From: Spirochaetia bacterium
GTDB taxonomy: Bacteria > Spirochaetota > Spirochaetia > SP-2023
DNA: 64,000 nt
Assembly (NCBI GenBank): GCA_965225855.1
Contig: CBDDCK010000005.1
Location: 64,001 to 128,000 of the forward strand
Direction of reading: 5' to 3'
The notes under the pieces: generated by a model
Told to the model about the DNA's origin: nothing
Database searches by the model: none
Seen by the model: the letters and a program-made list of their open reading frames with translations, nothing else
Shown: piece by piece, positions 45,976 through 64,000 of the stretch
Layout of the letters: every line of letters starts with the position of its first letter
Position numbering within the stretch: the first letter of the stretch is position 1
Position numbers and translations under genes: made by a program

Positions 45976-46149
45976 CCCGTAAAAGTTTTCGCTTAGGGGT
46001 ATTTGTTGGGGGCTGCATGCAAAGCGGCTATCGCCCCACTCGGTATACGGCACATACAATTGGTTGAGTCCTAAAAAGTCGATCGATATTTGTTTTTGGC
46101 TCTCTAGGCTTAGTGCGGCAAAATCTTGGGGGGTTGGGGGCTCTGCCAT
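45976..46149 (-). pseudogene. 3'-end remnant of a Mod-like methyltransferase gene
   Basis: PQDFAALSLESQKQISIDFLGLNQLYVPYTEWGDSRFACSPQQIPLSENFY aligns with the Mod C-terminus PEDFAALSL..QRQILIDFLELNQLYVPY..R.DTRFACT. Confidence 0.85.
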
Positions 46150-46154
46150 TAAGA

Positions 46155-46526
46155 CTAATTGCTTTCTTCTTTGCTAGTTTCTAGCATTTGAGGGCTATGA
46201 GAAACGTGCCGATGGGCTTCTATCATGTTTATTTGCAATCTCTTTTCATCGCTGTCTCTCCTTATCGTATCAATCTCTTTTTCCATCTTTAGTTGACGCG
46301 CCTCTATATTAGAAACATCTTTCCTTATTTGGGAAAGCTCGATTTTTATTTCCGATATAGCTACTTGCAATTGCCCTATTTTATCTTGCAATTGCCCTAT
46401 TTTGTCTTGTAATTCTCTGTGATCATTGCGGCGGTCTCTATTTGCGCTCATCGTGTGGGTAACTATGGCATTGATGATAAACGCTACCGCCAACACTGCC
46501 GATATAATAAGACTTATGAAATCCAT
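46155..46526 (-). CDS. small N-terminal TM plus coiled-coil hypothetical protein
   Basis: AAGGAAA RBS; hydrophobic N-terminus; LQDKIGQ heptad duplication. Confidence 0.6.
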   Translation of the reverse strand: MDFISLIISAVLAVAFIINAIVTHTMSANRDRRNDHRELQDKIGQLQDKIGQLQVAISEIKIELSQIRKDVSNIEARQLKMEKEIDTIRRDSDEKRLQINMIEAHRHVSHSPQMLETSKEESN

Positions 46527-46706
46527 AGTTTTATTTCCTTAGTAGGTAGCAACCCTGAACATTGATATGCTAAGATATAGAGAGTCAAAGGCCAACTCAA
46601 GAGAAAAGAGATTTTATCAATAAATTGTATTCTAAGCAATTGAATTAGGCAAAGTCAAGCAAAGAACAGCCTAGCTTACCATAAATTGCCTACCCCCAAC
46701 CACAAA

Positions 46707-49208
46707 TTAGCGGTAAGGAATACTGCTTGTATGTATGGCAGGCTCTTCCAGTTGGGGGAATTTATTACCCTTTTTGTATAGTTGCAAAAGATAGTTTATA
46801 TATAACCGCTCGGCCTTGCTGGCCTTAGGGGCCGTTAGTACCGCACATAGCTTATTTAGTTTATCGGTTTCTATATAAATATAGGGCACGCTCTTGGTCT
46901 CTATATCTTGTAATTGTTCGCTCTGGAGTATTTCGGGGATATGTTCTGGGCCGGCAAAACACACGAAACGGTATTCTTGTTCGTGGGCATAGCTTTTATC
47001 TTTTATCAAATAGCGTATGCCGTTTAGTAATTCTAAGCATTTGTGGTATATATCGGGTTTTTGTTGTGCTTCTTCCTTTATTTTTTGTTGTTCTTCTCTT
47101 TTTATCTTTTTAAGGCTTTCTTTTATTTGTTTTATTTCCCCATCTACTGCTTTGTTGCCACTATTTATATAGTGGACTTGATACAATATCTGTGGGGGTG
47201 CTGCTTCTTCTGTGCTTTTTATATTTTTTGACCGTGTAGCTGTTTTGCCTTGCTTACTATCATCACTTGATTCATTAACTGAAGATAATGAAGGAAGCGG
47301 TATAGACTGATCTTGCTTGCTATATCCAATATGCTCTGGCCCACTATAGACTAAGTCTTTTGTTTGAAAGAGCAAAGCAATACCTTTAGCATCATCGCCG
47401 TACATACTCCATATGGGCAAAAGGTCTAAACCTTTTATATCTTTGCCACCACAAAAGCTAGCCACCATTATATAGGGAATATCGGCACTGGATTCTATTG
47501 GTTCGGGTGCAAGGCCTAAGGCTGTAAATAATGCTCTTCCTTCGGTGGGGTCGTTGGCATAGACAATATGGTACATGCGCAATTTGCCTAGTTTTGGTTT
47601 TCCCTCACTGTTTATCGGGACCAAATACTTCGTAAATACCGATAGTTTGGTAGTATGGGAAAGATATGTTACACTGTCTGTAGAGTCTTTGTTTACCTTT
47701 AATTTGTCTAATATTTGGTGAACACTTTCAAAGATAGCAAAGATATTCTTAGCAATATTATCTTCTTTAGAATTTTCTTTATTATCTTTTGGAAACGCTT
47801 TTGCTTTATATGCTGCTATATTTTCACTAGATACACCATACCGCAAAGCCTTATTGAGGTTATCAATCGCTTTTAGATATTCTTCTTTATTAAGAAAATC
47901 TATCCCTTGTTGTAAGTATTTTAATTTATAATCTGGCTTTAGCTCTGTTACTTTATCAAAATCGGCTACTGCTTGTTCGTATTCTTTTTGTTTTGCATAA
48001 GCAAGGCCTCTGTTATAATACGCATTGGCTTTGTCGTTGTTATCTGTTGCTAACTCAATGGCTTTTGTGTAATCCGCTATCGCTAGCTCATATTTTCCTT
48101 GTTCGCTGTAAGTAAAACCTCTGTTGTTATACGCAATTGCTTTGTTGTTATCATTTGTATCTAGCGCAATAACTTGCGTATATTCTGCTATGGCTTCTGC
48201 GTATTTTTTTTGTCCTAAGTACGCAATTCCTATGTTGCCATACGCTACTGCTTTGCCGTTGTTATCCGTGAATAGCTCAATGGCCTCTTTATAATCCGCT
48301 ATCGCTAGCTCGTATTCTCTTTGTTCTAAGTACGCAATGCCTTTGTTGATATACTCAATTGCTTTGTCGTTGTTATCCGTGAATAGCTCAATGGCCTCTT
48401 TATAATCCGCTATCGCTAGCTCGTATTCTTTTTGTTTTAAGTACGCAACGCCCCTACTTCCATACGCCCTCGCCTTGTCGTTATTGTCCGTATATCGCTC
48501 AATAGCTTGGGTAAAATTATCTATCGCTTGTTCGTATTCTCCTTGTTCTTCGTAATAAAAGCCTCTAACAAGATACTCCCCCGCTTTTTGTTCATTGTCT
48601 GTTGCTAACTCAATGGTTTCTGTAGAATCCGCTTTTGCTTTTGCGTACTTTTCTTGTTTTTCATAAGTAACGCCTTTGTTGTTATACGCATTAGCTTTAA
48701 TGTTATTATCGTTTGCTAGCCTTATGGCTTCTGTATTATCCGCTTTTGCTTTTTCGTATTCCCCTTGTTCGCTGTAAACAACGCCTCTGCCAAGATGTGC
48801 AAATGCTTTCGTACTATTATCGGTAGCTAGCTCAATGGCCTTTGTGTGATTCGCTATCGCTGGTTCGTATTTTCTTTGTTCTTCATAAATAATGCCTATA
48901 TTGGTATACGCCTGTGCTTTGTCGTTGTTATCCGTAAATAACTTAATGGCTTGGGTAAAATCCTCTATCGCTGGCTTGTATTCCTTTCGTTCCCTGTAAG
49001 CATTGCCTCTGTCGTTATACGCCTTTGCTTTGTCGTTATTATCCGTGAATAGCTCAATGGCCTGCGTATAGTCCGCTATCGCTTGTTGGTATTTTCCTTG
49101 TCCGCTGTGCGCATTGCCTCTGTCGTTATACGCCTCCCCCCTCTGTTCATTGGTAGAATTGGGGTTTTCAATAATCTGTGTGTATTGTTCTATTTCACGG
49201 TCGTTCAT
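46707..49208 (-). CDS. TPR-repeat protein (about 11 x 37 aa) with C-terminal DUF2971-like domain (type A)
   Basis: 37-aa TPR units; NDPTEG, SFC, PIWSMYGD, K..YAHEQEYR; start overlaps the Mod stop (ATGA). Confidence 0.8.
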   Translation of the reverse strand: MNDREIEQYTQIIENPNSTNEQRGEAYNDRGNAHSGQGKYQQAIADYTQAIELFTDNNDKAKAYNDRGNAYRERKEYKPAIEDFTQAIKLFTDNNDKAQAYTNIGIIYEEQRKYEPAIANHTKAIELATDNSTKAFAHLGRGVVYSEQGEYEKAKADNTEAIRLANDNNIKANAYNNKGVTYEKQEKYAKAKADSTETIELATDNEQKAGEYLVRGFYYEEQGEYEQAIDNFTQAIERYTDNNDKARAYGSRGVAYLKQKEYELAIADYKEAIELFTDNNDKAIEYINKGIAYLEQREYELAIADYKEAIELFTDNNGKAVAYGNIGIAYLGQKKYAEAIAEYTQVIALDTNDNNKAIAYNNRGFTYSEQGKYELAIADYTKAIELATDNNDKANAYYNRGLAYAKQKEYEQAVADFDKVTELKPDYKLKYLQQGIDFLNKEEYLKAIDNLNKALRYGVSSENIAAYKAKAFPKDNKENSKEDNIAKNIFAIFESVHQILDKLKVNKDSTDSVTYLSHTTKLSVFTKYLVPINSEGKPKLGKLRMYHIVYANDPTEGRALFTALGLAPEPIESSADIPYIMVASFCGGKDIKGLDLLPIWSMYGDDAKGIALLFQTKDLVYSGPEHIGYSKQDQSIPLPSLSSVNESSDDSKQGKTATRSKNIKSTEEAAPPQILYQVHYINSGNKAVDGEIKQIKESLKKIKREEQQKIKEEAQQKPDIYHKCLELLNGIRYLIKDKSYAHEQEYRFVCFAGPEHIPEILQSEQLQDIETKSVPYIYIETDKLNKLCAVLTAPKASKAERLYINYLLQLYKKGNKFPQLEEPAIHTSSIPYR

Positions 49209-63450: not shown

Positions 63451-63572
63451 GGTTTCCTCCGTTGTAAAAGTTTTCGCTTAGGGCTATTTGTTGGGGGCTG
63501 CAGCTAAAGCGGCTATCGCCCCGTTTGCTGTAGAGCTTTTCAGTATGCTAGGCTTAGGGGCTGGCTTTGCAT
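63451..63572 (-). pseudogene. internally deleted mod gene (about 120 bp: 5' end joined to 3' end)
   Basis: TAGGAGAAATCC-ATG then MQSQPLSLAY* (cf. MKSQPLSLEY), followed by RGDSRFSCSPQQIALSENFYNGG (cf. Mod C-terminus). Confidence 0.85.
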
Positions 63573-63629
63573 GGATTTCTCCTATTGGGTTGTAGTGTAT
63601 CAGTATAATTGATTTGCCTACAGAGGTAA

Positions 63630-63680
63630 AGCTCTCTGCGTATTTAGGGCGGGCGCTTTGCGTATTGAGCCGGGCCGGGC
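63630..63680 (-). repeat. 2 degenerate 22-bp TAAATAC(G) repeats
   Basis: GCTCTCTGCGTATTTAGGGCGGGCGCTTTGCGTATTGAGC on the plus strand. Confidence 0.65.
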
Positions 63681-63686
63681 CGCAAG

Positions 63687-64000
63687 TTAGCGGTAAGGAA
63701 TACTGCTTTTATATATGGCCGGCTCTTCCAGTTTGGGGAATTTATTACCCTTTTTGTATAGTTGCAAAAGATAGTTTATATATAACCGCTCGGCCTTGCT
63801 GGCCTTAGGGGCCGTTAGTACCGCACATAGCTTATTTAGTTTATCGGTTTCTATATAAATATAGGGCACGCTCTTGGTCTCTATATCTTGTAATTGTTCG
63901 CTCTGGAGTATCTCGGGGATATGTTCTGTGCCGGCAAAACACACAAAACGGTATTCTTGTTCGTGGGCATAGCTTTTGTCTTTAATCAAATAGCGTATGC
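63687..64000 (-). CDS. 3' end of another TPR/DUF2971-type-A gene, truncated by the window edge
   Basis: About 97% identical by eye (about 9 mismatches in 314 bp) to 46707-47020. Confidence 0.85.
   Translation of the reverse strand, partial: IRYLIKDKSYAHEQEYRFVCFAGTEHIPEILQSEQLQDIETKSVPYIYIETDKLNKLCAVLTAPKASKAERLYINYLLQLYKKGNKFPKLEEPAIYKSSIPYR

Follow-up and report, generated by a model that had tools for sequence, protein, structure and literature searches.

Here we describe a tandem array of genes for restriction-modification (R-M) methyltransferases of Type III (Mod) and for tetratricopeptide repeat (TPR) proteins at one end of a 64,000-nucleotide stretch of a Spirochaetia bacterium genome (GenBank assembly GCA_965225855.1, contig CBDDCK010000005.1, here C5). 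This whole stretch, hereafter the window, is C5:64,001-128,000; coordinates without a prefix refer to the window and those prefixed C5 to the contig. The genome (G000 in comparisons) has a size of 2.71 Mb and a GC content of 40%, and carries three FlaA genes; this spirochaete-typical family, found in 0 of 14 control genomes, identifies the organism as a spirochaete.

On the minus strand the window holds three intact units, each in the order 22-bp repeat array, leader, Mod and TPR gene (Table 1). The leader of these units ends in TAGGAGAAACC-ATG, and the start of each TPR gene overlaps the Mod stop by 4 nt (49205-49208, 53616-53619 and 57531-57534). The array extends past the window edge, where a fourth full Mod, A4 (C5 130075-131973), headed by a six-unit 22-bp array, forms the first unit of the locus; T5, which enters the window from that side, is frameshifted between its TPR and effector parts. 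The initial annotation of the window had reported the three units and their overlaps, a deleted Mod, a trailing Mod scrap and a TPR gene at the window edge, all of which we found in place. It did not include Gene X, located between T1 and the Mod scrap, which has a promoter-like sequence (TTGACT-18-TAGAAT) at 46658-46629, and both the fourth Mod and a second array lay beyond its view. Contigs of runs X1 and X2, possibly from the source sample, show zero differences to three target recognition domains (TRDs) and to the Mod A3-T3 junction, and none of them spans the array.

The second array of the same kind is found on this contig at a distance of 630 kb (C5 763,920-786,552), together with a Res gene. 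Behind Res come HicB-type genes and one ParA-like gene, then three full Mods (B1 to B3), another mini-Mod, the 5′ scrap of a Mod and four TPR genes; dispersed among them are a TIR gene, an 8xMP gene, GmrSD and a methylase of type II. Both mini-Mods retain the leader and the Mod tail, and the second is consistent with deletion between copies of a 10-bp repeat found near both gene ends.

Table 1. Features of the window array (window coordinates) and of the second locus (contig coordinates). RBS, ribosome-binding site; 2-TM, two transmembrane segments.
Feature	Position	Strand	Description
Mod C-terminal scrap	45970..46161	-	final Mod domain, ~64 aa; 64% by tblastn to Mod A1 aa 569-632
Gene X	46155..46526	-	123 aa, single copy; hydrophobic N-terminus and coiled coil; DUF2730 E 4.5e-6
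T1	46707..49208	-	833 aa, intact; 11 x 37-aa TPR and DUF2971 type 1
Mod A1	49205..51109	-	Type III beta-class methyltransferase, 634 aa, TRD 1
22-bp array and leader	51110..51213	-	2 units (51168-51213); leader with RBS
T2	51232..53619	-	795 aa, intact; 16 x 37-aa TPR and coiled-coil/2-TM domain
Mod A2	53616..55514	-	632 aa, TRD 2
22-bp array and leader	55515..55684	-	5 units (55573-55684); leader with RBS
T3	55702..57534	-	610 aa, intact; ~10 TPR and DUF2971 type 2
Mod A3	57531..59432	-	633 aa, TRD 3
22-bp array and leader	59433..59580	-	4 units (59491-59580); promoter-like TTGGCC-17-TATGAT; RBS
T4	59629..63450	-	1273 aa, intact, its Mod deleted; 28 x 37-aa TPR and DUF2971 type 2
mini-Mod	63447..63572	-	126 nt; first and last Mod codons, middle deleted; tail contains the GGAGG RBS of T4
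Leader and degenerate 22-bp array	63573..63676	-	~2 units; promoter-like TTTACC-17-TATACT
T5 3′ end	63687..64000	-	TPR and DUF2971 type 1; continues past the window to C5 130078
Res	C5 763920-766484		854 aa; heads second locus; PADLOC PDLC03651 E 4.7e-120
Second-locus Mod-TPR array	C5 769209-786552		

Mod paralogs, their recognition domains and a distant Res

All three window Mods match PF01555 and PF12564, as well as the PADLOC MTase_III model (PDLC03635) with E-values of about 1e-186 to 1e-191, which bears out their first description as Mod-like methyltransferases. The genome holds seven full Mods of this family with six different TRDs and one matching Res. The DPPY motif and the S-adenosylmethionine-binding GxG motif (FxxxGxG) around the variable TRD are kept in all seven; identity among paralogs is 75-94% in the N-terminal and 61-92% in the C-terminal flank, and 15-30% in the TRDs, with the sole exception of those of A4 and B1, which are 98% identical. 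The TRDs have a GC content of 29-39%, whereas the flanks have 42-48%; the nearest paralog shifts along each Mod gene, and the flanks are mosaic. TRD A1 is 59% identical to a TRD from a different Mod family in the congener G001, and G489 has a mod-res locus with a TRD about 60% identical to that of A4/B1. The idea that the array might be a shuffled library of methylation specificities is thus upheld by the six TRDs among the seven Mods. A search of 400 genomes of the phylum gave nine Mod matches in the present genome and three or fewer in each of the other 32 matching genomes; a tandem pair of Mods accompanied by one Res is present in G071, G481 and L033. None of the searched genomes has a higher count than the seven Mods with six TRDs per Res found here.

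The Res is full length with intact helicase and nuclease motifs (MATGTGKT, LADEAHH, QLIGRGAR, PDF..IEPK), which places in the same genome the superfamily 2 (SF2) helicase and PD-(D/E)xK nuclease subunit of a Type III system, and it is 56% identical over its length to the Res of a canonical mod-res pair. By its sequence it is of the family that belongs with the window Mods. Homologs of it lie downstream in 39 of 40 Mod homolog loci across bacteria, the exception stopping at a contig edge, and within 1.5 kb downstream in 21 of 29 Mod loci of the phylum (60 of 69 in both sets together). The initial annotation had called the Mods orphans and had proposed to look for res elsewhere in the genome; given the matching intact Res that this search found, they are better described as distant from their Res than as orphans.

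We consider it probable that the locus is a tandemly amplified unit of array, leader, Mod and TPR gene, in which seven Mods with six TRDs share one distant Res and the TPR genes are separate anti-phage riders. The Mods might alternatively act mainly as solitary methyltransferases that shield against incoming restriction or shape expression, with Res serving one, few or none of them. Mod dimers methylate without Res (PMC4005696; sources given here by PMC accession are cited from excerpts), four of the Mods are 630 kb from Res, some copies of a second Mod family of this genome likewise have no adjacent res (C5 518833 and 1808059), and several phylum loci have no Res close downstream, all of which would suit such a role. 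However, the conservation of a full-length Res with intact motifs and its identity to the Res of a canonical pair argue against it, as does the C-terminal domain, kept in all seven Mods at 78-92% mutual identity. Furthermore, the mod coding sequences contain no di-, tetra- or pentanucleotide tracts of the phasevarion kind, and only one 7-nt homopolymer in each of three TRDs. We therefore regard solitary function as unlikely, if still the least improbable of the alternatives.

Type III genes of another kind lie at C5 518833-544596 and 1808059-1810032 (four Mods and two Res); three of these Mods are headed by 22-bp arrays and two, those named above, have no adjacent res. Directly downstream of one res-less copy is a 1243-aa open reading frame (ORF; C5 1804250-1807981). 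At C5 1999909-2000110 a leader and 22-bp array precede a Mod-like start of ~25 codons, which stands back to back with two genes that are also found beside the Mod scrap in G071. In G429 an ORF of at least 501 aa (L244 1811-3316) overlaps the stop of a Mod of the window family and has neither similarity to Res nor a PADLOC match.

TPR-effector genes and their relation to Mod

Nine genes in the genome carry the 37-aa TPR repeat, and their C-termini are of three types: DUF2971 type 1 (T1, T5, TB1 and TB4), DUF2971 type 2 (T3 and T4) and a coiled-coil/2-TM domain (T2, TB2 and TB3). Repeat number ranges from 3 to 28 across the TPR-DUF2971 and TPR-2TM genes. T1, T3 and T4 exceed the Pfam cut-off for DUF2971. 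The type 1 domain of T1 has the motifs H-T-T, NDPTE, W-S-M-Y and YAHEQE and matches Atlas DUF2971 clusters (0.95-0.96), while T3 and T4 match the PADLOC candidate defence family PDC-S31 (E 1e-28 to 1e-31; T3 3.5e-31). DUF2971 has been assigned to the ADP-ribosyltransferase (ART) superfamily (PMC12522546), in agreement with the structural matches of T3: a model of its domain (pLDDT 84) gave ART folds as all of its top eight matches, at modest Z scores of 4.4-5.8 (root-mean-square deviation 3.3-4.7, 102-153 aligned residues). These include Tpt1, DarT, TreX, TreTu and Scabin, of which Tpt1 and DarT are closest (Z 5.2-5.8). A sequence search of the T3 effector against the PDB gave no significant match and Foldseek none at E<=0.001. 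The type 2 effector, which in T3 contains a WEYEHE motif, is thus modelled as an ART-like fold with an ExE motif, and ADP-ribosylation is its predicted activity. The 2-TM domain, with hydrophobic peaks at 658 and 692 in T2, has no significant family in Pfam, NCBIfam or PADLOC; a match of the T2 C-terminus to DUF6161 (0.87) is a lead only.

These results sustain the earlier view that the TPR genes end in defence-type effector domains, and a lone DUF2971 protein, Aristaios, confers phage defence (PMC11381338). A literature search found no paper on PDC-S31 or on spirochaete symbionts in this connection, and only unrelated papers on 8xMP. A role outside defence, for example in interaction with an animal or microbial host, the genes being present through duplication only, would be in keeping with the estimate that ~18% of DUF2971 proteins are predicted effectors (PMC12522546) and with the expansion of several repeat-protein and lipoprotein families in this genome. 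We nonetheless hold this to be very improbable, the least probable of the explanations we weighed: T1 to T4 have no hydrophobic segment at the N-terminus, T3 and T4 belong to a candidate defence family, and the neighbours of such genes are TIR/8xMP, GmrSD, HicB, HsdS, DarTG and type II R-M genes.

Each of the nine TPR genes follows a Mod or a Mod remnant, and the Shine-Dalgarno-like sequence of each is located in the last Mod codons, which gives a mechanical reason for the translational coupling. Outside this genome the association dissolves. The initial annotation had proposed that the TPR-effector takes the slot of Res behind Mod, yet in 69 homologous Mod loci, where Res is the usual downstream gene, no TPR gene directly follows Mod (0/69, one TPR lying past a res) when probed by tblastn with the T2 repeats, which very divergent TPRs could escape. 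Similarly, five other spirochaetes (G002, G071, G095, G116 and G154) contain 19 related TPR-DUF2971 genes or fragments, not one of which follows a Mod (0/19, a count that leaves out a DUF2971 match in G069), and a Type III Mod occurs in the examined flanks of only one of them (G071), with none in those of the other 18. Of the viral and metagenome loci with a distant match to DUF2971 (82 in all), one has a TPR, one a weak methyltransferase match and none both. Both half-loss states exist: T4 is whole despite the deletion of its Mod, and the Mods A4 and B1 are complete next to the broken TPR genes T5 and TB1, which have frameshifts. No co-variation is seen between TPR N-termini and Mod flanks (Mantel r 0.07, p 0.34-0.38, 7 pairs), the near-identical TRDs of A4 and B1 precede effectors that are only 62% alike, and the 2-TM type follows three different TRDs (A2, B2 and B3). 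As judged from these comparisons, the TPR lineage does not track the Mod lineage. Of the findings that the initial annotation had named as together pointing to a passive duplication of unrelated neighbours, a res just outside the window was absent from the interval searched (C5 126,000-150,000), whereas the Mod-TPR linkage is indeed not conserved elsewhere.

The TPR genes are therefore likely to be self-contained defence genes for which the Mod tail serves as ribosome-binding site, and on present evidence we interpret the locus as a lineage-specific amplification of a promoter-Mod-TPR unit and not as a new two-gene system. If the TPR-effector were instead a partner of Mod, it might guard the Mod dimer or a Res-Mod complex, firing on binding by a phage anti-restriction protein or on methylation failure, or its DarT-like domain might modify DNA that Mod has left unprotected. 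The complete linkage with translational coupling in this genome and the closeness of the effector fold to Tpt1 and DarT would be explained in this way, and PrrC, which guards EcoprrI, offers a precedent (PMC9122126). Relatives also abut R-M parts, three of the 19 being divergent beside a lone HsdS, two by a TdeIII-type system and one before a Mod pair, and, because the Mod flanks are conserved, a deleted Mod could be replaced in function by any of its paralogs. Against this stand the two half-loss states, the promiscuity of the 2-TM type and the lack of co-variation with Mod flanks; nor was the conserved linkage of a PrrC-like R-M guard seen, the Mod-then-TPR order being absent from both the Mod and the TPR-DUF2971 loci of other genomes. 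We rate such a partnership as quite improbable. We give similarly little credence to a version in which the TPR proteins are sentinels of a multiplexed Type III system, co-translated with Mod and watching a Mod surface common to the seven paralogs, and just as little to its corollary that the DarT-like or membrane effector would fire when a phage protein blocks restriction, the TPR-ART genes of relatives doing likewise beside lone HsdS.

Several observations nevertheless weigh against a shared Res and independent TPR riders. The usual, if not strict, Type III layout has mod first and res adjacent, but here res precedes the second-locus Mods and lies 2.7 kb from the first of them, so that it need not be co-expressed with them. 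The Mod family can also persist without an adjacent Res, because 8 of 29 phylum loci have none within 1.5 kb downstream. With regard to the TPR genes, a 9/9 link within the genome combined with diverged effectors implies that the pairing has outlasted many swaps. A4 and B1, with their common TRD, both precede the same effector type, and comparison of TPR genes with TRDs gives Mantel r 0.30, p 0.09; the co-variation test includes only seven pairs.

Under the shared-Res explanation, an island with mod, res and TPR-effector genes would have entered the lineage, and the promoter-Mod-TPR unit would then have been amplified at two loci. Units would expand and contract via homologous and microhomology recombination between copies, and recombination between copies would swap TRDs, TPR repeat numbers and effector domains. 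Each Mod dimer would methylate its own asymmetric site, and Res1Mod2 complexes of several specificities, formed in trans, would cut phage or plasmid DNA that lacks methylation. The TPR arrays may sense a trigger and release the ADP-ribosyltransferase-like or membrane effector without involvement of the adjacent Mod. In this way up to six specificities could be conferred on one Res, and independent TPR-gated effectors would add a second layer. The locus thus offers natural parts with which to ask whether a panel of Mods can redirect one Res in trans and whether Mods with unlike TRDs pair into working heterodimers, while the TPR-DUF2971 and TPR-2TM genes, with their range of repeat numbers, form a natural series for finding what TPR-gated ADP-ribosyltransferases sense.

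Upstream repeats, related islands and known systems

The initial annotation had treated the 22-bp array as part of the unit, which holds insofar as the arrays head the units; they are, on the other hand, a genome-wide element. There are 27 in the genome, of which 13 head Type III mod genes or remnants from two Mod families, the remainder lying before lipoprotein paralogs, between other defence-type genes or within a TPR gene. The units run head to tail, without the unique spacers of a CRISPR array. Five folds of the arrays gave nothing unusual for a structured RNA (z +0.5 to -1.3), and no tyrosine recombinase of the integron or shufflon kind is found at the arrays, the only two PF00589 genes (C5 383,726 and C1 134,691) being far from both loci; serine recombinases were not searched for. 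The exact 22-bp core at 22-bp spacing did not turn up in the five nearest relatives (G001-G005, 79-92% complete). Similar arrays flank the closest mod-res pair, in G116, which belongs to another family; the G116 array-type pattern has 54 overlapping matches on three contigs there and none in four other genomes. The last, degenerate unit may provide a -35-like hexamer, although promoter calls are weak because the scan returned 51 sites against 42.2 +/- 6.0 in shuffles. We infer that the arrays may be a protein-binding or copy-number-tuned promoter element. Thirteen HU-HIG matches occur in the genome, several of which edge defence clusters, one directly before res; that an HU-HIG protein binds the arrays is a guess.

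Other repeat-bearing genes lie elsewhere in the window. At 13227-19900 an N6-methylase fusion of 1282 aa with a weak PglX-like match precedes a TPR gene of 758 aa that has 44-aa repeats and, by eye, a TIR-like start; the 3′ end of this TPR gene is broken by two five-unit 22-bp arrays inside a 241-bp duplication, where the coding sequence resembles the repeat. Paralogous lipoprotein-like genes at 29219-31366 (minus strand) and 34036-36099 (plus strand) contain 363-bp internal repeats, and 22-bp arrays with as many as 16 units stand before further copies (C4 302946, C5 1231884 and C5 1564790). A coiled-coil gene of 21- and 33-bp repeats at 36452-37171, with a weak SpiroCoCo-family match, has a paralog at C5 143950-144576.

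An island in G071 contains the same parts as the present arrays in another order and with Res: a 2-TM gene, a TPR-DUF2971 gene, two Mods, inserted genes, a Mod 5′ scrap, a type II R-M system and Res. Its type II methylase is 94% identical at the DNA level to that of our second locus and the Mod-scrap junction is common to both, suggesting that such islands are likely to move between spirochaete families. In both genomes the type II R-M cassette is embedded in a Mod remnant (C5 776942-778260 here, L199 14261-16363 in G071), and its restriction gene is full length in G071 and largely deleted here. A lone HsdS gene stands head to head with TPR-DUF2971 in G071 and G095 (L189 1460-4867 and 8387-11718; L194 6718-9540), twice consecutively in G071. 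A TIR and 8xMP pair follows a type 1 TPR-DUF2971 gene in the present genome (C5 773966-774851), and an 8xMP-like gene, identified by eye, lies just downstream of a type 1 gene in G095 and G154 (L273 and L274).

The initial annotation knew of no described system with a Mod-TPR architecture, and our literature search found none either; the parts and their behaviour do have precedents. PrrC and PARIS are second-line defences triggered by anti-restriction proteins (PMC9122126), and a guard role for the TPR-effectors would match their logic of an effector beside an R-M system, but we saw neither homology nor conserved linkage. Aristaios and PDC-S31 are alike in DUF2971, ART-like fold and ExE motif; Aristaios, however, is a single gene of 316 aa, whereas DUF2971 is here fused to 10-28 TPR repeats and placed behind Mod. 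TRDs move between mod genes in Helicobacter pylori (PMC3467074), and tandem-paralog recombination has been modelled for the Staphylococcus aureus lpl genes (PMC2568036). Shared with these are the replacement of TRDs between conserved flanks, across loci and Mod families, the recombination of tandem paralogs and a type II system inserted in a Type III locus. In contrast, the recombining unit here consists of two unrelated genes, of which the TPR gene also swaps effector and repeat number.

Closer parallels are the tandem mod paralogs of Mycoplasma agalactiae (MAGa1570/1580), with one res downstream (PMC9465063), and the three co-located mods of Mycoplasma bovis PG45 (PMC5909438), which likewise are duplicated genes with conserved ends and different TRDs; the present arrays differ in having more copies, two loci, a cargo gene per unit, and upstream 22-bp arrays instead of GA tracts. 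That nearly identical Res subunits work with different Mod specificities is known from EcoP15I and EcoPI (PMC4005696). Finally, the system resembles Type III R-M of the PF12564/PDLC03635-PDLC03651 kind in its beta-class Mods (DPPY, FxxxGxG and a central TRD) and matching SF2 helicase-nuclease Res, and departs from it in having seven Mods with six TRDs per Res, res downstream of no mod, four Mods 630 kb away and a TPR gene after each Mod.

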